DNA of 64,000 nucleotides from Phyllobates terribilis (lineage: Eukaryota). The translations under genes and the position numbers were made by a program. The stretch spans positions 124,372,001 to 124,436,000 of the forward strand of contig NW_027362764.1 in the NCBI RefSeq assembly GCF_046119375.1, written 5' to 3'. This document shows positions 2,219 to 58,412 of this stretch, one piece after another. The notes beneath the pieces were generated by a model. The model saw only the letters and a list, made by a program, of their open reading frames with translations. It did not search any database and was not told the origin of the DNA. The first letter of the stretch is position 1. Every line of letters begins with the position of its first letter.

Positions 2219-5200
2219 CATTCTATTAGTCCATCTATACTGACCTCCATCAGGTTGCAAATTGAATATAATTTTTTTCTGCATCTAGCTCTGAAAAAAT
2301 ATTGGGCTTCTAGCTGTGTGTGGGACTTGTTGTATTAGTCCATCTATACTGACCTCCATCAGGTTGCAAAGTGCATATATTTTTTTCTTCATCTACCTCT
2401 GAAAAAATATTGGGCTTCTAGCTGTGTGTGGGACTTGTGCTGTTAATCCATCTATACAGACCTCCATCAGGTTGCAAACTGAATATATTTTTTTATGCAT
2501 CTACCTCTGAAAAAATATTGGGCTTCTAGCTGTGTGTGGGACTTGTTGTATTAGTCCATCTATACTGACCTCCATCAGGTTGCAAATTGAATATAATTTT
2601 TTTCTGCATCTAGCTCTGAAAAAATATTGGGCTTCTAGCTGTGTGTGGGACTTGTTGTATTAGTCCATCTATACTGACCTCCATCAGGTTGCAAACTGCA
2701 TATATTTTTTTCTTCATCTACCTCTGAAAAAATATTGGGCTTCTAGCTGTGTGTGGGACTTGTTCTATTAATCCATCTATACAGACCTCCATCAGGTTGC
2801 AAACTGAATATATTTTTTTCTGCATCTACCTCTGCAAAAATATTGGGCTTCTAGCTGTGTGTGGGACTTGTTCTATTAATCCATCTATACAGACCTCCAT
2901 CAGGTTGCAAACTGAATATATTTTTTTCTGCATCTACCTCTGCAAAAATATTGGGCTTCTAGCTGTGTGTGGGACTTGTTCTATTAATCCATCTATACAG
3001 ACCTCCATCAGGTTGCAAACTGAATATATTTTTTTCTGCATCTACCTCTGAAAAAATATTGGGCTTCTAGCTGTGTGTGGGACTTGTTCTATTAATCCAT
3101 CTATACAGACCTCCATCAGGTTGCAAACTGAATATATTTTTTTCTGCATCTACCTCTGAAAAAATATTGGGCTTCTAGCTGTGTGTGGGACTTGTTGTAT
3201 TAGTCCATCTATACAGACCTCCATCAGGTTGCAAACTGAATATATTTTTTTCTGCATCTACCTCTGAAAAAATATTGGGCTTCTAGCTGTGTGTGGGACT
3301 TGTTGTATTAGTCCATCTATACTGACCTCCATCAGGTTGCAAACTGAATATATTTTTTTCTGCATCTACCTCTGAAAAAATATTGGGCTTCTAGCCGTGT
3401 GTGGGAATTGTTCTATTAATCCATCTATACAGACCTCCATCAGGTTGCAAACTGAATATATTTTTTTCTGCATCTACCTCTGAAAAAATATTGGGCTTCT
3501 AGCTGTGTGTGGGACTTGTTCTATTAATCCATCTATACAGACCTCCATCAGGTTGCAAACTAAATATATTTTTTTCTGCATCTACCTCTGAAAAAATATT
3601 TGGCCTTCTAGCAGTGTGTGGGACTTTCTCTATTAGTCCATCTATACTGACCACCATCAGGTTGCAAATTAAAAATAATTTTTATCTGCATCTAGCTCTG
3701 AAAAATATTTGGCCTTCTAGCAGTGTGTGGGACTTTCTCTATTAGTCCATCTATACTGACCTCCATCAGGTTGCAAATTAAAAATAATTTTTATCTGCAT
3801 TTAGCTCTGAAAAAATATTGGGCTTCTAGCTGTGTGTGGGACTTGTTGTATTAGTCCATCTATACTGACCTCCATCAGGTTGCAAACTGCATATATTTTT
3901 TTCTTCATCTGCCTCTGAAAAAATATTGGGCTTCCAGCTGTGTGTGGGACTTGTTCTATTAATCCATCTATACAGACCTCCATCAGGTTGCAAACTGAAT
4001 ATATTTTTTTCTGCATCTACCTCTGAAAAAATATTGGGCTTCTAGCTGTGTGTGGGACTTGTTGTATTAGTCCATCTATACTGACCTCCATCAGGTTGCA
4101 AACTGAATATATTTTTTTCTGCATCTACCTCTGAAAAAATATTGGGCTTCTAGCCGTGTGTGGGAATTGTTCTATTAATCCATCTATACAGACCTCCATC
4201 AGGTTGCAAACTGAATATATTTTTTTCTGCATCTACCTCTGAAAAAATATTGGGCTTCTAGCTGTGTGTGGGACTTGTTCTATTAATCCATCTATACAGA
4301 CCTCCATCAGGTTGCAAACTGAATATATTTTTTTCTGCATCTACCTCTGAAAAAATATTTGGCCTTCTAGCAGTGTGTGGGACTTTCTCTATTAGTCCAT
4401 CTATACTGACCACCATCAGGTTGCAAATTAAAAATAATTTTTATCTGCATCTAGCTCTGAAAAAATATTTGGCCTTCTAGCAGTGTGTGGGACTTTCTCT
4501 ATTAGTCCATCTATACTGACCTCCATCAGGTTGCAAATTAAAAATAATTTTTATCTGCATTTAGCTCTGAAAAAATATTGGGCTTCTAGCTGTGTGTGGG
4601 ACTTGTTGTATTAGTCCATCTATACTGACCTCCATCAGGTTGCAAACTGCATATATTTTTTTCTTCATCTGCCTCTGAAAAAATATTGGGCTTCCAGCTG
4701 TGTGTGGGACTTGTTCTATTAATCCATCTATACAGACCTCCATCAGGTTGCAAACTGAATATATTTTTTTCTGCATCTACCTCTGAAAAAATATTGGGCT
4801 TCTAGCTGTGTGTGGGACTTGTTGTATTAGTCCATCTATACTGACCTCCATCAGGTTGCAAATTGAATATAATTTTTTTCTGCATCTAGCTCTGAAAAAA
4901 TATTGGGCTTCTAGCTGTGTGTGGGACTTGTTGTATTAGTCCATCTATACTGACCTCCATCAGGTTGCAAACTGCATATATTTTTTTCTTCATCTACCTC
5001 TGAAAAAATATTGGGCTTCTAGCTGTGTGTGGGACTTGTTCTATTAATCCATCTATACAGACCTCCATCAGGTTGCAAACTGAATATATTTTTTTCTGCA
5101 TCTACCTCTGAAAAAATATTGGGCTTCTAGCTGTGTGTGGGACTTGTTCTATTAATCCATCTATACAGAGCTCCATCAGGTTGCAAACTGAATATATTTT

Positions 5201-6188
5201 TTTCTGCATCTACCTCTGAAAAAATATTGGGCTTCTAGCTGTGTGTGGGACTTGTTCTATTAATCCATCTATACAGACCTCCATCAGTTTGCAAACTGAA
5301 TATATTTTTTTCTGCATCTACCTCTGAAAAAATATTGGGCTTCTAGCTGTGTGTGGGACTTGTTGTATTAGTCCATCTATACAGACCTCCATCAGGTTGC
5401 AAACTGAATATATTTTTTTCTGCATCTACCGCTGAAAAAATATTGGGCTTCTAGCTGTGTGTGGGACTTGTTGTATTAGTCCATCTATACTGACCTCCAT
5501 CAGGTTGCAAACTGAATATATTTTTTTCTTCATCTACCTCTGAAAAAATATTGGGCTTCTAGCTGTGTGTGGGAATTGTTCTATTAATCCATCTATACAG
5601 ACCTCCATCAGGTTGCAAACTGAATATATTTTTTTCTGCATCTACCTCTGAAAAAATATTGGGCTTCTAGCTGTGTGTGGGACTTGTTGTATTAGTCCAT
5701 CTATACTGACCTCCATCAGGTTGCAAACTGAATATATTTTTTTCTGCATCTACCTCTGAAAAAATATTGGGCTTCTAGCTGTGTGTGGGACTTGTTCTAT
5801 TAATCCATCTATACAGACCTCCATCAGGTTGCAAACTGAATATATTTTTTTCTGCATCTACCTCTGAAAAAATATTTGGCCTTCTAGCAGTGTGTGGGAC
5901 TTTCTCTATTAGTCCATCTATACTGACCTCCATCAGGTTGCAAATTAAAAATAATTTTTATCTGCATCTAGCTCTGAAAAAATATTTGGCCTTCTAGCAG
6001 TGTGTGGGACTTTCTCTATTAGTCCATCTATACTGACCTCCATCAGGTTGCAAATTAAAAATAATTTTTATCTGCATCTAGCTCTGAAAAAATATTTGGC
6101 CTTCTAGCAGTGTGTGGGACTTTCTCTATTAGTCCATCTATACTGACCTCCATCAGGTTGCAAATTGAATATAATTTTTTTCTGCATT
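2219..6188 (+). repeat. 108-bp satellite array (~36-37 monomers) inside the hAT, with a 7-monomer (~760 bp) higher-order duplication
   Basis: AAAAAATATTGGGC recurs at 2294, 2402 and 2510 (period 108); diagnostic variants recur at offsets of 759-760 (3394/4153, 3911/4671). Confidence 0.97.
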
Positions 6189-24246: not shown

Positions 24247-27200
24247 TGATGAAACTCTGACAAAAATCTGATGAAAATCACAGATGAAACTCTGATGAAA
24301 ATCACTGATGAAACTCTGATGAAAATCACAGATGAAACTCTGATGACTATGACTGATGAAACTGATGAAAATCACTGATGAAACTCCAATGAAAATCACT
24401 GATGAAACTCTGATGAAAATCACTGATGAAACTCTGATGAAAATCACTGATGAAACTCTGATGACTATGACTGATGAAACTGATGAAAATCACTGATGAA
24501 ACTCCAATGAAAATCACTGATGAAACTGATGAAAATCACTGATGAAACTCTGATGAAAATCACTGATAAAACTCTGATGAAATTCACTGATGAAACTCTG
24601 ATGAAATTCACTAATGAAACTCTGACGAATTTCACTGATGAAACTCTGATGACTATGACTGATGAAACTGATGAAAATCACTGATGAAACTCTGATGAAA
24701 ATCACTGATGAAGCTCTGATGAAATTCACTGATGAAACTCTGATGAAATTCACTAATGAAACTCTGATTAAATTCACTAATGAAACTCTGATGAAAATCA
24801 CTGATGAAACTCTGATGAATATCACTGATGAAACTGCTGAAAATCACTAATGAAACTCTGATGAATATCACTGATGAAACTGATGAATATCACTGATGAA
24901 ACTGATGAAAATCACTGATGAAAATCACTGATGAAACTGATGAAAATCACTGATGAAGCTCTGATGAAATTCACTGATGAAACTCTGATGAAATTCACTA
25001 ATGAAACTGTGATGAAAATCACTGATGAAACTCTGATGAATATCACTGATGAAACTGATGAAAATCACTAATGAAACTCCAATAAAAATCACTGATGAAA
25101 CTCTGATGAAAATCACTGATGAAACTCTGATGAAATTCACTGATGAAACTCTGATGAAATTCACTGATGAAACTCTGATGAAAATCACTGATGAAACTCT
25201 GATGACTATGACTGATGAAACTGATGAAAATCACTGATGAAAATCACTGATGACTATGACTGATGAAACTGATGAAAATCACTGATGAAACTCTGATGAA
25301 AATCACTGATGAAGCTCTGATGAAATTCACTGATGAAACTCTGATGAAATTCACTAATGAAACTGATGAAAATCACTGATGAAACTCTGATGAATATCAC
25401 TGATGAAACTGATGAAAATCACTAATGAAACTTTGATGAAAATCACTGATGAAACTCTGATGAAATTCACTGATGAAACTTTGATGAAATTCACTAATGA
25501 AACTCTGATGAATATCACTGATGAAACTCTGATGACTATGACTGATGAAACTGATGAAAATCACAAATGAAACTCTGATGAATATCACTGATGAAACTCT
25601 GATGAAATTCACTGATGAAACTCTGATGAAAATCACTGATGAAACTCTGATGAATATCACTGATGAAACTGATGAAAATCACTAATGAAACTCTGATGAA
25701 TATCACTGATGAAACTGATGAATATCACTGATGAAACTGATGAAAATCACTGATGAAAATCACTGATGAAACTCTGATGAAAATCACTGATGAAGCTCTG
25801 ATGAAATTCACTGATGAAACTCTGATGAAATTCACTAATGAAACTCTGATGAAAATCACTGATAAAACTCTGATGAATATCACTGATGAAACTGATGAAA
25901 ATCACTAATGAAACTCTGATGAAAATCACTGATGAAACTCTGATGAAATTCACTGATGAAACTTTGATGAAATTCACTAATGAAACTCTGATGAATATCA
26001 CTGATGAAACTCTGATGACTATGACTGATGAAACTGATGAAAATCACTGATGAAAATCACTGATGAAACTCTGATGAAAATCACTGATGAAGCTCTGATG
26101 AAATTCACTGATGAAACTCTGATGAAAATCACTGATGAAACTCTGATGAATTTCACTGATGAAACTGATGAATATCACTGATGAAACTGATGAAAATCAC
26201 TGATGAAACTCTGATGAAAATCACTAATGAAACTGTGATGAATATCACTGATGAAACTGATGAATATCACTGATGAAACTGATGAAAATCACTGATGAAA
26301 CTCTGATGAAATTCACTAATGAAACTCTGATGAAATTCACTAATGAAACTCTGATGAATATCACTGATGAAACTCTGATGACTATGACTGATGAAACTGA
26401 TGAAAATCACTGATGAAAATCACTGATGAAAATCACTGATGAAACTCTGATGAAAATCACTGCTGAAGCTCTGATGAAATTCACTGATGAAACTCTGATG
26501 AAATTCACTAATGAAACTCTGATGAAAATCACTGATGAAACTCTGATGAATATCACTGATGAAACTGCTGAAAATCACTAATGAAACTCTGATGAATATC
26601 ACTGATGAAACTGATGAATATCACTGATGAAACTGATGAAAATCACTGATGAAACTCTGATGAAAATCACTGATGAAGCTCTGATGACATTCACTGATAA
26701 AACTCTGATGAAATTCACTGATGAAACTCTGATGAAATTCACTAATTTAACTCTGATGAAATTCACTAATGAAACTCTGATGAATATCACTGATGAAACT
26801 CTGATGACTATGACTGATGAAACTGATGAAAATCACTGATGAAAATCACTGATGAAACTCTGATGAAAATCACTGATGAAGCTCTGATGAAATTCACTGA
26901 TGAAACTCTGATGAAATTCACTAATGAAACTCTGATGAAAATCACTGATGAAACTCTGATGAATATCACTGATGAAACTCTGATGAATATCACTGATGAA
27001 ACTGATGAATATCACTGATGAAACTGATGAAAATCACTGATGAAACTCTGATGAAAATCACTGATGAAGCTCTGATGACATTCACTGATGAAACTCTGAT
27101 GAAATTCACCAATGAAACTCTGATGAAAATCACTGATGAAACTCTGATGAAATTCACTAATGAAACTCTGATGACTATGACTGATGAAACTGATGAAAAT

Positions 27201-27430
27201 CACTGATGAAAATCACTGATGAAACTCTGATGAAAATCACTGATGAAGCTCTGATGACATTCACTGATGAAACTCTGATGAAATTCACCAATGAAACTCT
27301 GATGAAAATCACTGATGAAACTCTGATGAAATTCACTAATGAAACTCTGATGACTATGACTGATGAAACTGATGAAAATCACTGATGAAAATCACTGATG
27401 AAACTCTGATGAAATTCACTGATGAAACTC
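24247..27430 (+). repeat. 3.2-kb minisatellite of 11-13 bp CTGATGAA-cored subunits (24-bp basic unit CTGATGAAAATCACTGATGAAACT) inside a MITE
   Basis: Direct repetition; flanks carry remnants of inverted termini (ACGTCAGT at ~23993; ACTGACGTTTGAATGAGG at ~27455). Confidence 0.98.
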
Positions 27431-45901: not shown

Positions 45902-47021
45902 TGTGGCGCCCCTGAGGGTTCAGTCGCCACAGAGATACTGCACCTCACCCCGAGGTGTGGTGTCTCCCTTCTCTCAGGTAGGGACGGGAGTGTTGCACGG
46001 AACCCCAACCACCTACATCCAACACAACACTGCTCCAGGCCAGCAGGAGGGGCAAGACGCAATGTAGTTTTCTGCTGAGCCCTGGCCCTGGCTGGAGTAG
46101 GTGGGGAACCAATAGTGGGTGTGGGAGGAGGAAACAGATACACGGAGCACATATATAGTAAGTATATAATAGGAAGCCATATTAGGTCTAGGGGGAATTC
46201 TAGTGAGGGCTGTTCAGAGGAACAGTCCGGGAGCAGAGGCTCAGTCAGAGCTCTGCTCCACAAGTTAGGGCCCAGGATAGAGGCCCCGGAGGGGAGCAGG
46301 GAGCAGGCTCCATTCTACGTAAAGGATCCCAGGGGGTACGGCGCGTGCAGGACGGCACCCGTACACCCCGCTCCTGCCAGGTGTCAGGAAGGATCGGTTG
46401 CTACACTCAAAACCCCAGGGGGTCAGGTTGGTCCCAGATCCGACGTACAGGAAGGACTTCAGCATACCCAAGCGGGAATGAGAGTGGGCAGCGTAGGACA
46501 ACGGTGAGAAGGACCGAGTGTGAAAAAGGTCAAGATAGGAACATATGAAAGTGGGGTTCCGCCAGGCATTCCTAAATTTGCTTGAGAAAGGATTGAACCC
46601 CTGTCCGGTGAACGTAGCGCGGCGAGGGAGGCCTTCACCTGCAAAGTGCATTTGTGAATTGCCTAAGAACTGTAAGTAAAACCTTGGACGACTGCATCGA
46701 ACAGCCTCTGTCTGTTTCTTCACTGGCATCACTGATCCTCACCGCACTACAACGCCCAGCACACCATTCCACCATCTATCTATCTACACTGCCCTGAGGC
46801 CCGCTCCACCTGTGGGGAGCTGTACCATCTTTAGCTGCCTTGTCACCTGCCTCAGAGGACTGCTGCAGCGCTGGTGACCTTCACCAGACACCACAGGTGG
46901 CGTCACGAATTTCTCTGAACTTTATTAGTAATCGCTACCCCTTTTGTGCACTGTCCGCCCTGGGCCAGCCACCATGATATATATACTGTCCCCAAACAGT
47001 AAGGCCCCCGGGGGCGCGACA
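45902..47021 (+). mobile_element. Solo LTR related to the LTRs of the cold-shock-domain element
   Basis: TGTGGCGCCCCTGAGGGTTCAGTCGCCACAGAG...GGGGGCGCGACA; 4-bp TSD CTAG. Confidence 0.88.
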
Positions 47022-48300: not shown

Positions 48301-51300
48301 CACAGGAGACTCAGTCTTTTTCTCTGTCATCACACCCTGCGCAGGTGCAACCTCTGGCCACAAGGTGGCAGCACCATCCTGCGTAATCATTTCTGTCACA
48401 GGCTCTATTTCAATTATCACAGAACAGCCAGAGCCTGCCAGCTCACTACATAGGCATGGTGTCTTTTACGCATTTACATTCCTTTTCTCATTAAAGAGGC
48501 AATCTCAAGTTTAAAAGTTATCCCCTATGCACGGGATAGGGGATAACTTTCTGATCACTGGGGGTCCGACCACCATGGACCACACTGATTTTGAGGATTA
48601 GAGTGGAAGTCAATCATGCGCACTGCCATTCCATTCTTTCATAATGGAAGTGCTGAAGATTGCTGAGCACCGCGATATTCAACTCTCTTATTAAAATGAA
48701 TGGAGAGGCAGTGGGCATGATCGACCTCCATTTCATTCAGCAGAAGCTCTTCAAAGCCCCGGTTCGCAGGATCGATGGGGGTCACGGCGGTTGGACCACC
48801 AGTGATTGGAAAGTTGTCCCCTATCCTTTAGATACAGTAGGAGGTAAAATTCAAACTTGAGAACACCCTTAAAGTTTTTGGCTTGGTTGAAAAAGACCTT
48901 CCCCATTCTGTTTCATATATTAACCCCTTTACCCCCGAGGGTGGTTTGCACGTTAATGACCAGGCCAATTTTTACAATTCTGACCACTGTCAATTTATGA
49001 GGTAATAACTCGGGAATGCTTCAACGGATCCCACTCATTCTGATATTTTTTTTTTTGTGACATATTGTACTTCATGATAGTGGTAAAATTTCTTCGATAT
49101 GACTTGCGTTTATTTGTGAAAAAATTGGAAATTTGGTGAAAATTTTGAAAATTTCGCAATTTTCAAAAGTTGAATTTTCATGCCCTTAAATCCAAGAGAT
49201 ATGTCACACAAAATAGTTAATAAATAACAATTCCCACATGTCTACTTTACATCAGCACAATTTTGGAACCAAAATTTTTTTTTGTTAGGGAGCTATAAGG
49301 GTTAAAAGTTGACCAGCGACTTCTCATTTTTCCAACAAAATTTACAAAACCATTTTTTTAGGGACCACATCACATTTGAAGTGACTTTGAGGGGTCTTTA
49401 TCACAGAAAATACTCAAAAGTGACACCATTCTAAAAACTGCACCCCTCAAGGTGCTCAAAACCACATTCAAGAAGTTTATTAATGACGCCGTGGGGTACT
49501 CGGTGCCGGGCCGGTCGTTGCTAGGGGAGATGTCACAGTGGTGGTGACCCGGTCCGTGACCCAGTGTGGTCAATCAAAAGGGGAATTATTTACACGGGAT
49601 TTTATAGTTTTATATTTATATAGTTCGTGACGCCACCTGTGGTATGCAGCTATATGGAGCCGCCGCCGCTGCGGTGCAGGTCCTCTGGAGCTGTTGCTAG
49701 TGCAGCAGAGTTGGTTTAGCTCTCCACAGGTAGAGCTTAGCTCCAGGGTGGTGCTGAGATGTTATGGATGTTGCGGTGTAGTGCAGGGGGTGATGGCGCA
49801 GATAATAATCACAGAGACAGTGGGGTGCAGTCTTCCGAGTTTACTCACAGTTGTTAAGTTCCTCAGGTTGCACTGTCCAGCTTACAGCCTCCCACGTTGC
49901 GCTGCGTTCATCAGTCAGGGGTTCAGCAATCCCTCAGGTAGTTCAAGAGTGCCTGACAGGACCCCTTTCTATGTGCCTTCCTCAGTTGTTTTCCTGCGCT
50001 GGCTCTCGCCCTCCTGCCCTGCGCCTCACAATCAGTGTCCCAAGTCGATAGCCTCGGGTCTTGTCGGGCGACCTGCAGTCCCCTGGACGCTCTGTGGCCA
50101 CCTTTTCGGCGATGTAATTGTGGCTGTGGCAACTGCACCCTAAAAGTACTGAAGCCTCCGGTTTCAAGCTGAGCCTTGTAGTTCTCCACTAGTTTAGGGG
50201 CCGGTTCCCTCTGCGGCTTGATCCTTCCACACCTGGTAGATTCGGGCGTATGGGTGGCCTCCAGCACTGCCCGTACCTCTAGGATCCCCTCGTTCCTCCT
50301 GGAGCCTTCCTTCCTGCTCCACTCTCCTTCTCAGTCCTGGGCCTCTCTGCTAGGCCCACTCTGGAGCAGAGCTCGTGCAGAGCCCCTGCTCCCTCCACTC
50401 CTCCTCTGACTGGCTCTCTGACTGGACTCACTTTCCAAGATGGTTCCCTATTTTATATCACTTCCTTTCCTGTGCTCTCCTGAACTACGTCCTCCACCCA
50501 CACCCACTACATGGTTCCACCCTCCAGCTAGGGACCAGGGACTGTGCTCTTCCTTAGGAGCAATCTCACCCTGCCCCCACTGAAGTGGAATGTGCTGGAT
50601 GCAGGTGTTAGGGTCCCAGGCAGCACTCTATCCTTACCTGAGAGTGAGATACCACACCTCTGGGTGAGATGCAGTACCTCTGTGGCGACTGAACCCTCAG
50701 GGGCACCACATACCCCCTTAGTAAAACACAGCACGTCCGCGGGCTGGAACAGAGTGAAACACAAAATATTTTAAAGACATACAATTTTTAGATGCATCAC
50801 ATATAAGATCATAAACATAACATTTCTTCCCTTTATGGGAGGCACATCACTTGAATGTTACAGGTTTCCTAAGCAGCTTACAACACATTGTAAAACATTC
50901 TTCAAGTAGATAAAACATTTCTCTTATCAAACATTTTTAGTAGGCTACAGCGCAATCTGTAACCGGCTGTCCATTCTTTTCAACAAGGAGCAATCTAGCA
51001 AACATGAGCATGAGGGACCCGTCCGAAAACCCTCAACGTAGGCCCTGGGCGTGGCTGCAGGGCATAGGTGATCCAGGTGTTGGACCACGTCTTCAGCCAC
51101 GCCAAACGGGTTTTTGTTCTGAGGTCATTCGTTGTTACATAAAACCAATAAGGGGCACTTTAAGAAGTGCAATTATATTCAAGTAAACGTTTTTCGTTTA
51201 TTCACCGTCCATAACCTTAGTGTCTCTATACCCTTACCAGGCAACGGGATAAACAAAACATTAATTCTTCTGTACCCTTCCGGGTAACTATATACTGTCT

Positions 51301-51316
51301 CTGTGATGGAAACAAT

Positions 51317-52787
51317 TTAACAATGGGGCTCCCTCCGGGGAGGAAACTCCTGATTTTTACAGGCTGACCCAGCCGGGTCTTCAGCCTTCTGCTGCGGGGG
51401 CACATCTCTCTTCTTTGCCACCCGGTATACCTGGAGGGCATACCACCCGCGCTCGCCTTTGTGGCGTCTAAATGTGACATGGTCGCCTGGGTATAGGTCC
51501 CGGCCGGGATGCCCCTGTTGGAGGTGGAGTTCTACATCCCGCTGATTGACGAACACGTCCCTATCAGTATTGGGCTCCCTTACAAAGCCCCACCCAGCGT
51601 CCAAGTCAAATTTGACCACTATCCCCTCCAGACGGGGACTGGGCGTGGTGACTTTTGCCTGGCGGGCCCGGGCCTTGGCTGCCATGTTTCGGGCCTCCAT
51701 GTGCTCCCACCGCACCTACCGGTTATATCGCTCCTTTTCCAACTGCAGGAGCTCCCTCCTGCAGTGCTCTTCCCTCTGGTGGGCCTGGGCCTGCGTTTCC
51801 CACGGGAACCCCATGAGGTCCCCTTCCCGGTCGTCCCACCGGAACTCCTCTCCTCCTGGGCAGGTAACCGGGGGGTGCAGGTGTGTGCGTCAGAGGGAGT
51901 CCCTGCTGGTCTTCATTCCTGGCGGACCAGTCATAAGTGGGGCCTCCATATGCCCACTCAGGTGCAGGAGCAGGTGGCTCTGGTAGGGGGCCCAGGAGCA
52001 GGTCAGCTGAGCAGGCGCCCGGGTTTGGAGATTCCGCCTGAGAATCAAGGAGCTGGTCGGCGTAGCAGGCGCCCGGTGTAGGAGACTCTGGGCTTTGGAG
52101 CAAGTTTGGAGCGTGCGCACCCGGGTACGGAGGCTCCGCCAGGGGGCCCAGTAGCAGATCAGCGCGGTCTGCGCCCGGGACAGGGAAACTCTTCCTACCT
52201 GCTCCCGCGGCCGCTCCTATGCTGCTCTCTGCCTCCTGGTCCTGGTTAGGCTCCGCCGGGGCGCTGCCAGTGGACTCCGGTACTTGCTGCCATCTGATTC
52301 TCATTTTTTCCAACACCTCTCTCTTCCAGCCGGCGATGGCTGTTTGCTGGTCCTCTCCCACCTGCCGACTTAGCTCACACATTTCGGCATGGAGGAACTC
52401 CGCATCCTCCAGGGACAGCTTGCAGATCACCTCTCCCAGGGTAAGAGGTGTTTCGACTTGCTGCAGGCCGCAGGCTGGAGTTCCAGACTCGCCTCCTTCC
52501 ATCTTGCCTGCTGGTGTGGTCTGTCTGGTCTGCTTAAGCCCACACCCTGTCTCCCAGTTTTTTTCTTTCATCTCCCCTTTCTGGGGCGGTCCCATGGCTG
52601 CTTGCTGTCGGCCACACCTGGGGGCAGCTCCCCCACCTTGATGGACACATCCACGTTCATGGTCACTGCTGCTTGGGGCGTGCTCTGTTTTTGGCACCAT
52701 TCTGGGACCCGGCCCACAATGGGAGGTTCTATGTTGTCCTTGATAACGCACATAATGGCTCCCGTTCTTCTGGGGCGGGCACCACAT
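51317..52787 (-). pseudogene. Degenerate ~489-aa ORF: low-complexity/repeat N-terminus, charged helical segment, C-terminal cold-shock domain
   Basis: The 354-aa ORF joins the CSD frame if one base is removed at the G6 run (51870-51875) and the TAG at 51716-51718 is read through. Confidence 0.7.
51419..51634 (-). CDS. Cold-shock (OB-fold) domain, Y-box/Lin28-like
   Basis: RLEGIVVKFDLDAGWGFV (RNP1) ... DRDVFVNQRDV (RNP2) ... LYPGDHVTF ... GERGWYALQV aligns by eye with CspA and YBX1 CSD. Confidence 0.88.
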
Positions 52788-52844
52788 TTAGTATAGAACA
52801 CAGTCTCTAGGCGCACGGTACCCGGTGATAACGGGTGGGTTCAT

Positions 52845-52862
52845 ATCCTGTTCGTGACGCCA
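52845..52862 (-). promoter_or_regulatory. Primer binding site complementary to the tRNA-Ser(CGA) 3' end
   Basis: TGGCGTCACGAACAGGAT, 4 nt inside the 5' LTR; 18/18 complement to ...ATCCTGTTCGTGACG-CCA as recalled for a vertebrate tRNA-Ser-CGA. Confidence 0.85.
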
Positions 52863-54633
52863 AAGATGACGCGCCCCCTGGGCCGTGGGGTACTCGGTGC
52901 CGGGCTGGTCATTGCTAGGGGAGATGTCACATTGGCGGTGACCCGGTCCGTGACCCAGGGTGGTCAATCAAAAGGGGAATTATTTACAGGGGATTTTATA
53001 GTTTTATATATATATAGTTCGTGATGCCACCTGTGGTATGTGGCTATATGGAGCCGCCACTGCGGTGCAGGTCCTCTGGAGCTGTTGTTAGTGCAGCACA
53101 GTTGGTTTAGCTCTCCACAGGTAGAGCTTAGCTCCAGGGCGGTGCTGAGATGTTATGGATGTTGCGGTGTAGTGCAGGGGGTGATGGCAAAGTTCCTCAG
53201 GTTGCACTGTCCAGCTTACAGCCTCCCACGTCACGCTGCGTTCACCAGGCAGGGGTTCAGCAATCCCTCAGGTAGTTCAAGAGTGCCTGACAGGACCCCT
53301 TTCTATGTGCCTTCCTCAGTCGTCTTCCTGCGCTGGCTCTCGCCCTCCTGCCCTGCGCCTCACAATCAGTGTTCCAAGTCAGTAGCCTCGGGTCTTGTCG
53401 GGCGACCTGCAGTCCCCTGGACCCTCTGTGGCCACCTTTTCGGCGATGTAATTGTGGCTGTGGCAACTGCACCCTAAAAGTACAGAAGCCTCCGGTTTCA
53501 AGCTGAGCCTTGTAGTTCTCCACTAGTTTAGGGGCCGGTCCCCTCTCTGCGGCTTGATCCTTCCACGCCTGGTAGATTCGGGCGTACGGGTGGCCTCTCC
53601 TTCTCAGTCCTGGGCCTCTCTGCTAGGCCCACTCTGGAGCAGAGCTCGTGCAGAGCCCCTGCTCCCTCCACTCCTCTTCTGACTGGCTCTCTGACTGTAT
53701 TTTATATCACTTCCTTTCCTGTGCTCTCCTGAACTACGTCCTCCACCCACACCCACTACATGGTTCCACCCTCCAGCTAGGGACCAGGGACTGTGCTCTC
53801 CCTTAGGAGCAATCTCGCCCTGCCCCCACTGAAGTGGAATGTGCTGGATGCAGGTGTTAGGGTCCCGGGCAGCACTCTATCCTTACCTGAGAGTGAGATA
53901 CCACACCTCTGGGTGAGATGCAGTACCTCTGTGGCTACTGAACCCTCAGGGGCACCACATTAACCCTTCAAGTGCTTCACAAGATTTTTTGGAATGTGGA
54001 AAAAAAAATGAACATTTAACTTTTTCCACAAAAATGTTACTTTAGACCCCAATTTTTTTTATTTTCGCAAGGGTATCAGTAAAAAATGGGCCACAAAATT
54101 TGTTGTGCAATTCCTCCTGAGCACGCCGATACCTAATATGTGGGGGAAAACCACTGTTTGGGCACACGGCAGGGTTTGGAAGGGAAGCGCCATTTGACTT
54201 TTAGAATGTAAAATTTGCTTGAAAAATTAGCTGACACCATGTTGCGCTTGGGGAGCCCCTGATGTGCCTAAACAGTGGAAACCCCCAACAAGTGACACCG
54301 TTTTGGAAACTAGACCCCTGAGGGAACTTATGTAGATGTGTGGCGAGCACCTTGACCCCCCAGGATGCTCGAGTCCCCCCCGCATGTTTCATGGTCATAA
54401 GACACCCAAAAAAAACATGCAGGGATCGCTCGTGCATGGCAGGCAATCCCCGCAAGGTCTTTTGGCTGTATAACAGCTGCAAACATATGGGGCGGAGACT
54501 AGAGCATGTCACTCGAGCACCCGCGATAATTGGTGCATACCCGAGCACCGAATGCAAACTGAAGTAGTGAGCACTTGCACTCAACACTAGTCGCCATCAT
54601 CGTCATTTTTATTTCTTTAACTTTTGAAAAAAT

Positions 54634-56658: not shown

Positions 56659-57374
56659 GTAAGTGCTTCTATAGGGAGTGTTTGCTGAAGGAAACAAATA
56701 ATTAAAAATCAAATATGATCATCAAAATGTCTGCACAGAAAAAAGTCATATTGATATTTGAAAATGGGAAAAAAATATGCATTTAATAATATATAACCGC
56801 TAGTAATGAAGACGATCTAGTAAATTAGCCTTCTATTGTCTCATGGGTAACCCATCCTTTAGAGACATAGTTAAAAGGATTTGGTCGCTCCAGACCCAAT
56901 TGAAGATGGCCCAAAACAGATGTGTACCTAGTAATTGGCCAGGACACACCTGTCTCCCACAAGCTTCAAAGAAAATAAGTCAGTAAAATAAAGGAAGGAC
57001 AGTTCACACCAATGAACTGTGTTCTAGAGTGAACTACTTATGCCTAATTATTCATTATGTATGAAAGATAAATGATGGAGCAAAAGTCTTTTCCATTTTA
57101 ACGTTTGGTTGTAATTCTTAAAGTGGTTCTCTGGGGAAAAAAAGTAAAGCAAGAAAATTTCATAATAAATATATTCCTAAATATCTTTCATTAGCAAACC
57201 ACACTTGCTTTGTCTATGGAGGTAATTGCTTTAATACATTAAAATGGCTGCTGTCTTCTTATACTGACAAAAACCTTTGATAAAAGGTTAATAGGATGGG
57301 TGCCTGTGAGCATGTGCAGGATCAAGCTCCAAACCTCATTTCATGTGTAGGAAGATGAGCTCTAGGTGAATATT

Positions 57375-58412
57375 CTAATACTGGAGATACCAGGAGTGTT
57401 GAGGTAAGAAGAGGCTGCTCAAACTGCTGTCCACCCTGTCTATCTGATCTATTAGTGAAGATACCAGGAGTACTAAGGTAAGAAGAGGCTGCTCACACTG
57501 ATGTCCACCCTGTCTTTCTAACCTAATACTGGAGATACCATCAGTACTAAGGTAAGAAGAGGCTGCTCACACTGCTGTCCACTCTGTCTATCTGATTTAA
57601 TACTGGAGATACCAGGAGTGCTGAGGTAAGAAGTGGCCATCCACACTGCTGTCCACCCTGTCTATCTGATCTAATACTGGAGATACCAGGGGTGCTGAGG
57701 TAAGAAGAGGCTGCTTACACTGATGTCCACACAGTGTATATGATCTAATACTGGAGATACCAGGAGTACTGAGTTAAGAGGAGGCTGTTCACACTGCTGT
57801 CCACCCTGTCGCTCTGCTCTAATACTAGAGATACCAGGAGTCATGCGGTAAGAAGAGGGCATCGATACTACTGTTTTCCCTCTCTTTCTAATCTAATACT
57901 GGAGATACTAGGGTTCTGAGGTAAGAAAAATACAGTCACATTACAGGATACTCTGTATATCTGATGTAATATTGGAGATACCAGAAATGCTAAGCTAACA
58001 AGAAGCAATTTATACTGCTGTCCATCCTGATTAAGTACTGGTGATACAAGGATGGCTGAAATATGAAGAGTTTACAGACACTGCTGTCCATCCTCTACAT
58101 CTGATCTAATACTGGAGATACCACGGCTGCTGAAGTAAGAAGAGGCTGCTCACACTGCTGTCTACCCTGTCTTTCAATGTTTAATACTGGAGATACCAGG
58201 AGTGCTAGGGTAAGAAGAGTCTGCTCACACTGGTCTACTGGAGATGCCAGGTGTGCTAAGGTTAGAAGTGGTCACTCACATTATTGAGGTCTACTCTCTA
58301 TATCTGATCTAATAATGGAGATACTGGGGTGCTGAAGTAAGAACAGGCTGCTCACACTTTTGTCCACCATGTCTTTTTGATCTAATACTGGAGATACCAG
58401 GTGTGCTTAAGT
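57375..58412 (+). repeat. Diverged 74-bp tandem array (~14 copies)
   Basis: CTAATACTGGAGATACCAGG recurs at 57671, 57745 and 57819. Confidence 0.92.

Follow-up and report, generated by a model that had tools for sequence, protein, structure and literature searches.

A frog LTR retrotransposon family whose single gene ends in a Y-box-like cold-shock domain

The 64,000-nucleotide stretch of the Phyllobates terribilis genome analyzed here (contig NW_027362764.1, positions 124,372,001 to 124,436,000; hereafter the window) contains on its minus strand, from 53959 to 49484, a long terminal repeat (LTR) retrotransposon with a single open reading frame (ORF) that ends in a Y-box-like cold-shock domain (CSD). 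Analysis of this element and its relatives revealed that the family is real, under selection, and still spreading: purifying selection on the CSD is strong, with a dN/dS ratio (w) of 0.04-0.29, and the helices that precede it are under weaker selection. The copy in the window is itself dead; its ORF contains an early TGA, two mid-ORF frameshifts, and a second stop, TAG at 51716-18, ahead of the CSD, and the single long ORF was revealed by natural unbroken relatives.

Identity of the cold-shock domain and selection on the reading frame

The domain at 51422-51628 matches the Pfam family PF00313 with an E-value of 2.7e-9 and 37.2 bits (cut-off 27) and contains both GWGFV and DVFVNQ, the RNP1 and RNP2 motifs by which the original prediction had recognized a CSD. 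The same family was detected above the cut-off in three of six relatives and just below it (25.3-26.0 bits) in the other three. A Foldseek search with the predicted CSD structure (E-value 2.7e-6) placed the CSD of YBX2 at the top, in a near tie with CspA, and VIA-align aligned it to a bacterial CspB (Z 12.0, root-mean-square deviation 1.6 over 70 residues). The likeness to Y-box proteins holds by profile search: a profile of 10 element-type CSDs scored 53-55 bits against YBX1/2, 46.5 against CspA, and 26-28 against Lin28, and the best solved matches were YBX1 and YBX2; a single-sequence search hardly separates the candidates (YBX 21.4, CspLA 20.0). In the ESM Atlas only CSD clusters were matched (top score 0.78), which is a lead at most. 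The RNP1 and RNP2 phenylalanines are retained in the CSD alignments. The ranking of these matches, rather than a family tree, suggests that the CSD is likely of Y-box origin. A genome search for host YBX copies, which used a YBX-like pseudogene (L071) as the query, recovered only L071 itself (one of 21 candidates).

The CSD was originally described as the only recognisable cargo of the element. It is indeed present, but it is not free-standing and forms the C-terminal part of one long ORF that starts at 52753. This ORF encodes, in order, a basic N-terminal extension, two N-terminal helices, a proline-rich linker whose repeats vary, a charged helix of 49 residues, and the CSD followed by a short tail. 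In the AlphaFold model, based on a 17-sequence alignment, the helices and the CSD are confident and the linker is disordered (mean pLDDT 57.7, pTM 0.28); the N-terminal part modelled by itself forms one long helix with low overall confidence. The long charged helix is poor in hydrophobic residues (4-18%), and a dimer prediction for helix and CSD gave no answer either way (score 0.00). Neither a capsid domain nor a zinc knuckle was detected in the ORF by Pfam, and no capsid was seen in the predicted structure. Matches to Phostensin_N, CesT, WHD, FUSC, Troponin, and similar Pfam families were below the cut-off and were treated as helix noise.

The window's own genome (10.57 Gb) was searched for further copies. 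All 150 scored matches of the CSD region were close (83-92% besides the window copy) and lay over many contigs; first-look candidate numbers (37,262, 33,380, and 34,004) do not represent copy numbers and were not treated that way. A Pfam CSD search of the genome yielded mostly element copies, together with host CSDE1-type sequences and one YBX-like pseudogene. The CSDE1-like sequences include an intronless, at least partly duplicated cluster (L051-L056, G000:C1:734.44 Mb) that probably consists of processed copies of the host CSDE1 gene. A tree of 70 element copies resolved at least five subfamilies. An exact pattern of the primer-binding site (PBS) and leader matched 559 places for the window subfamily and 12,578 for a young subfamily, with no matches for the reversed controls.

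From each of these two subfamilies, 20 places were sampled (about every fifth of the first 100 listed), and thus picked by their PBS and not by their protein. In the young sample, the CSD was found in 15 of 20 places and an open frame from the leader through the CSD in 14; 19 had an LTR pair, with a median identity of 99.8%, and 15 had matching 4-nt target-site duplications (TSDs). In the window-subfamily sample, 14 of 20 had the CSD, one had an open frame, and 10 had an LTR pair (median identity 95.7%). Extrapolation from 15/20, in a sample that comes from one contig, gives about 9,400 young CSD-bearing copies, or roughly 45-50 Mb. The alternative of a single-copy processed YBX pseudogene was rejected, and the LTR-family assignment of the original prediction upheld, by the thousands of dispersed LTR-flanked copies and by dN/dS far below 1. 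A second group is deeply diverged: its LTRs differ, its PBS is similar, and its CSD is of the toad type. It includes long open frames in L148 and L155, a frameshifted copy (L147), and older relics; the CSD has thus been maintained in tRNA-Ser LTR elements of two groups that are deeply diverged from each other.

Three further observations concern the genomic copies. Shorter derivatives (L149-L151, corresponding to L060, L073, and L075) have simple-repeat-like sequence before the CSD instead of helices. Tandem arrays sharing LTRs and near-identical clusters resembling segmental duplications were observed at L045, L049, L096, and L165, and at G000:C3:796-830 Mb. Four sequencing runs of unrecorded kind cover all 30 bins, a coverage that cannot show transcription.

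Selection was assessed on 70 copies without a frameshift over the helix and CSD, 68 of which were grouped (L013 and L080 were omitted; 11 loci fetched twice had been removed first). Between subfamilies, dN/dS of the CSD is 0.07-0.23. In the window subfamily, represented by 43 copies that were chosen by protein likeness, which biases w downward, CSD variants present in at least four copies comprise 61 synonymous and 8 non-synonymous changes (w 0.04), whereas private variants comprise 17 synonymous and 63 non-synonymous changes and 4 stops (w 1.18). For the helix and CSD combined, the contrast between shared and private variants has a Fisher p of 4e-14. Constrained shared variants and neutral-like private ones suggest selection during spread, followed by decay after insertion.

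The constraint differs along the ORF. In 30 interiors, w of shared variants is 0.04 for the CSD, 0.28 for the long helix, 0.37 for the N-terminal helices, 0.46 for the linker, and 0.53 for the N-terminal extension, and the 3' untranslated region (UTR) of the same interiors, read in three frames as a neutral control, gave 0.75-0.97. The young CSDs picked by PBS (13 of 15) have w of 0.08. Moreover, synonymous sites are saturated between lineages that all keep the CSD. The suggestion that the family has kept its RNA-binding-type domain, for which a dN/dS comparison had been proposed as a check, is thus borne out by values far under 1 in the spreading lineages.

Structure of the element, its putative helpers, and its relatives

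The features of the window copy are as follows, in the order of the element.

53960-53963, no strand: TSD TTAA on the 5' side, letters read at the element edge
52867-53959, minus strand: 5' LTR, 1093 nt, TG...CA, 96.9% identical to the 3' LTR
52845-52862, minus strand: PBS, 18 nt, for tRNA-Ser(CGA); tRNA gene at L205, same PBS in the autonomous Gypsy elements L105, L109, and L112
51317-52753, minus strand: single ORF, broken in this copy; delimited from unbroken natural relatives and the predicted structure
51422-51628, minus strand: Y-box-like CSD, from Pfam, the profile search of solved structures (PDB), Foldseek, VIA-align, and the selection tests
50721-51316, minus strand: 3' UTR, with patches 77-87% alike to the 3' UTR of the partner Gypsy element; also the neutral control of the selection test
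50711-50720, minus strand: polypurine tract (PPT), directly before the 3' LTR
49484-50710, minus strand: 3' LTR, 1227 nt; about 11 nt present in the 5' LTR are missing near its end; the start of the PBS recurs inside it, near 49623-49634
49480-49483, no strand: TSD TTAA on the 3' side, letters read at the element edge

These features agree with the architecture that had been predicted from the letters of the window. The two long LTRs have 1046 identical bases among 1080 aligned, six indels, and TG...CA ends, and TTAA flanks the element on both sides. The PBS lies 4 nt away from the 5' LTR and is complementary to the 3' end of a tRNA-Ser(CGA) gene of the same genome. This gene was called by ARAGORN at one of four fetched loci; an earlier search pattern had retrieved element PBSs instead of tRNA genes at all six loci. 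The PPT was also confirmed. As predicted, no Pfam match to gag, protease (PR), reverse transcriptase (RT), or integrase (IN) was found in the five interior frames scanned, where the CSD was the sole match above the cut-off. TTAA as a fixed target was rejected: across the family, TSDs are 4 nt long and vary in sequence.

Several side observations were made on the priming region and the surroundings of the element. The first 11-13 nt of the element's own PBS recur inside the LTR, 155-180 nt ahead of the PBS (49623-49634 and about 53019-53030 in the window, 1918-1930 in L092, and also L104-L113 and L197). In autonomous helpers as well as CSD elements, this inner copy varies in step with the PBS type; it may be a second tRNA-pairing site. 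In some relatives (L198-L203), the complementarity of the PBS reaches about 5 nt further, into the T-loop of the tRNA. A related family is represented by a solo LTR on the plus strand of the window at 45902-47021, which has a CTAG duplication and contains this inner PBS-like motif as well. Long tandem arrays occupy 2221-6187 (108-nt units), 24263-27430 (24/48-nt units), and 57374-58401 (74-nt units).

Candidate helpers were found among autonomous elements. An integrase-bearing element adjoining one copy has the same LTR end and PPT context, and ten related loci contain Gypsy elements. By Pfam, L104 encodes PNMA/Retrotrans_gag, a CCHC knuckle, and PR, RT, RNase H (RH), and IN; no CSD was detected by Pfam in its Gag-Pol. 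Several of the loci L104-L113 have the PBS of the window subfamily, together with patches of likeness in U5 (the unique 5' region of the LTR), the leader, and the 3' UTR. One of the 20 young-pattern places, L197, turned out to be autonomous: its gag (352 aa) and pol (1145 aa) frames are open, and its LTR blocks are 100% identical. The young CSD family, whose PBS we take to be of the Ser(AGA) type, is 78-90% identical to L197 over U5, the LTR end and PBS, and the leader, as compared with 55-75% for the other helper. PNMA-type Gypsy elements with shared PBS, U5, and PPT are thus likely helpers, as judged from these cis blocks. A longer protein joining Gag-Pol to a CSD was not found among 28 and 16 protein matches, which is weak evidence.

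A protein search retrieved related proteins from Phyllobates terribilis, Ranitomeya variabilis, R. imitator, Anomaloglossus baeobatrachus, and Bufo bufo, which probably represent three frog families. One P. terribilis protein (P0003) is 95% identical to the young family. In B. gargarizans, an element-related piece lies within a fused protein. The nearest matches in the P. terribilis genome suggest that the proteins of the other species also lie in LTR elements. Among the 150 matches listed, most of the others are multi-stretch matches, and the few that were checked are unrelated CSD proteins. RefSeq contains predicted proteins from some element copies, and two Bufo bufo relatives are annotated 'Y-box-binding protein 2-A-like', a name that should be treated with caution since it covers some relatives of the element. 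Two unnamed proteins (P0137 and P0121) have a similar divergent CSD, which in P0137 is also preceded by a predicted helical stretch. In the public gene models P0153, P0001, P0165, and P0181, the helix-CSD part or the CSD of the element is fused to unrelated genes (an R3H coiled-coil protein, a Harbinger-like nuclease, a serine protease, and an NLR); these models would be annotation chimeras or exonised copies.

Possible roles of the protein

The explanation that we favor, and to which we assign a little less than an even chance, is that the protein of this non-autonomous family is an RNA-binding helper that stabilises the family RNA or directs its entry into helper particles. According to this proposal, (i) the family RNA would be made in germ cells and then translated, (ii) the protein would coat the family RNA via the CSD, with the helices oligomerising or docking on a partner, (iii) the coating would raise the lifetime of the RNA or its share of helper particles, (iv) the protein would act on its own and sibling RNAs in the same cell, (v) this action in trans would let CSD-less derivatives spread while protein-making lineages persist, and (vi) copying would depend on a PNMA-type Gypsy element in the same genome, which would supply Gag and Pol. 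An analogy is provided by host YB-1, which, in the accessible text of PMC6040738, backs production of human immunodeficiency virus (HIV), murine leukaemia virus (MLV), and mouse mammary tumour virus (MMTV) via stabilisation of the viral RNA. The abundance of Gypsy RNA in ova of the related frog Oophaga, reported in the available part of PMC6278860, was also counted in favor of the helper role.

Several observations weigh against this explanation. In the alignments, the first-strand tryptophan of YBX is replaced by lysine and the RNP2 histidine by asparagine or threonine. These two positions have a role in base stacking, and thus binding of single-stranded RNA may be weaker or retargeted. In nine window-subfamily copies picked by PBS, the contrast between private and shared variants was not reproduced (w 0.29 vs 0.21, p 0.48). 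Every class in these nine CSDs is at 0.17-0.29, i.e. below 0.3, and the contrast was probably lost due to their spanning diverged lineages. For the window subfamily, a helper is matched at the lineage level only, at 64-66% over the cis blocks, hardly above non-partners; the window copy itself is only 64-69% identical to either helper. For the young family, the assignment is clear.

The remaining evidence of this kind comes from derivatives that have lost the domain. Four different deletions have removed the long helix and the CSD from four of the 20 young copies, whose LTRs are nevertheless 99.8-100% identical. Three of the junctions occur 67, 328, and 31 times in the genome; the first two are widely dispersed, and the third is partly clustered on one contig. 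This recurrence indicates that such derivatives spread, and thus that copies can do without the protein in cis, at least temporarily. In these copies (L157, L158, L164, and L165), the N-terminal two-thirds of the protein is still open. The original prediction that the family kept an RNA-binding domain to package, protect, or control its RNA in the germ line would accordingly need an amendment, in that the CSD is not strictly required in cis. The simplest fit with strong selection would be a protein that aids the family's RNA within one cell, favoring its own makers sufficiently to be retained.

Action in trans is also compatible with a different and rather unlikely role, in which the protein is a counter-defence or decoy that competes with host Y-box proteins or small-RNA silencing and frees LTR RNAs, including those of the helper, for translation. 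YBX2/FRGY2 masks mRNA in oocytes; YBX1 and YBX2 are the nearest solved relatives of the CSD, and the altered RNA-contact positions could suit a mimic. However, if the benefit were shared freely, non-producers should gain and selection should weaken, but young lineages have w of 0.04-0.1, and no rapid change of the arms-race type was seen in the CSD.

We consider it quite unlikely that the protein is a nuclear activator that binds single-stranded DNA or promoters of its own family's LTRs, although CSDs bind single-stranded DNA as well as RNA (PDB titles and the accessible text of PMC6040738), the N-terminal extension has a basic stretch that could act as a nuclear signal, and family-specific action in trans would account for both selection and hitch-hikers. 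Subfamilies with only 70-80% likeness in their LTRs hardly differ in the CSD, and no binding site was identified.

The place of the ORF, which is that of gag, and its C-terminal RNA-binding-type domain are in line with a structural stand-in for Gag, where the helices assemble, the CSD replaces the zinc-knuckle nucleocapsid, and the product co-assembles with helper Gag-Pol; other vertebrate non-autonomous LTR families retain Gag alone (described in the available parts of PMC12067270 and PMC4585706). This role is very doubtful, given that no capsid domain was found by Pfam or in the model, that no similarity to the helper Gag was detected (probability 0.1%), and that CSD-less copies spread.

Selection could also come from the host, if the protein serves RNA control in the oocyte or embryo. 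A precedent is the Bik-1 Gag, needed in zebrafish according to the accessible text of PMC12067270, and RefSeq predicts proteins from some copies. Such a co-option is highly improbable: the constraint is on variants shared by spreading lineages, whereas single-insertion variants look neutral and include stops, and a single conserved locus did not emerge, although no cross-species search for one was made. Finally, a YBX fragment carried as passive cargo, as the broken window copy and the spread of CSD-less derivatives might suggest, is scarcely credible, being already contradicted by w of 0.04-0.29 in every test versus about 0.9 in the 3' UTR, by the open frame in 14 of 20 young copies, and by retention of the CSD across lineages with saturated synonymous sites.

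Relation to known elements and significance

To our knowledge, non-autonomous LTR elements normally encode nothing useful or Gag alone. Single-ORF elements of this kind include Xenopus 1A11 and Xretpos, zebrafish Bik-2 (BHIKHARI), and chicken ENS-1 (accessible parts of PMC4585706 and PMC12067270), with which the frog family shares LTRs, one ORF, the lack of pol, and recent activity. As described there, 1A11, Bik-2, and ENS-1/ERNI have a Gag or Gag-like ORF, whereas the frog ORF has no detected capsid or zinc knuckle and its selected domain is a CSD. The PNMA-type Ty3/Gypsy elements (L104, L105, and L197) have in common with the family a tRNA-Ser PBS, a 4-nt TSD, and a PPT, as well as homologous U5, LTR end, leader, and 3' UTR patches, but they encode Gag-CCHC and PR-RT-RH-IN, lack a CSD, and their Gag is dissimilar to the frog ORF.

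Among proteins, YBX1/YBX2 (FRGY2) share the CSD fold, including its long loop. They differ from the element CSD in sequence (about 28-30% identity, with the first-strand tryptophan and RNP2 histidine replaced) and in context: the element CSD is C-terminal after helices, intronless, and mobile, and is followed by a tail of about 30 residues instead of the long basic/acidic C-terminal domain of Y-box proteins. ORF1p of LINE-1, an autonomous non-LTR element, also has an RNA-binding domain behind a helical region; in that case the domain is an RNA recognition motif. By analogy, the frog protein would coat its own RNA, here with a CSD in an LTR element and with putative oligomerisation, the long helix being charged. 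Captured host-like domains are known in Gypsy-type elements as accessory ORFs, e.g. in Burro and Ogre (available part of PMC6431247); those are add-ons to autonomous elements, whereas the captured domain of the frog family sits in its only gene.

Our literature search found no description of an LTR element with a CSD, within a coverage that excluded most subscription journals and a comparison with Repbase or Dfam. The words 'cold' and 'Y-box' are absent from the accessible main text of the anuran genome papers PMC6278860, PMC12208295, and PMC12822217, whose supplements may list the family, and 'cold' is absent from that of PMC6431247.

Our broader proposal is tentative, and we hold it to be distinctly less probable than not: an old frog lineage of satellite retrotransposons may have replaced gag/pol with a captured Y-box domain, its protein steering helper Gypsy particles or oocyte mRNA storage toward its own RNA, in a three-tier chain of autonomous helper, CSD-making satellite, and CSD-less cheaters that would still be enlarging a giant genome by thousands of copies. 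The sole gene of the family encodes a non-Gag protein, with a host-type RNA-binding domain selected as strongly as many cellular genes in several diverged lineages and, probably, in three frog families. The family offers a testable case of a transposon that encodes its own counterpart of a host cofactor on which retroviruses draw. Y-box proteins are the dominant RNA-packaging factors of oocytes, and the finding bears on how retroelements survive there. It also gives a name to a sizeable share of poison-frog repeat DNA (roughly 45-50 Mb for one subfamily, by extrapolation), 62.6% of which was unclassified in one study (accessible text of PMC12208295).

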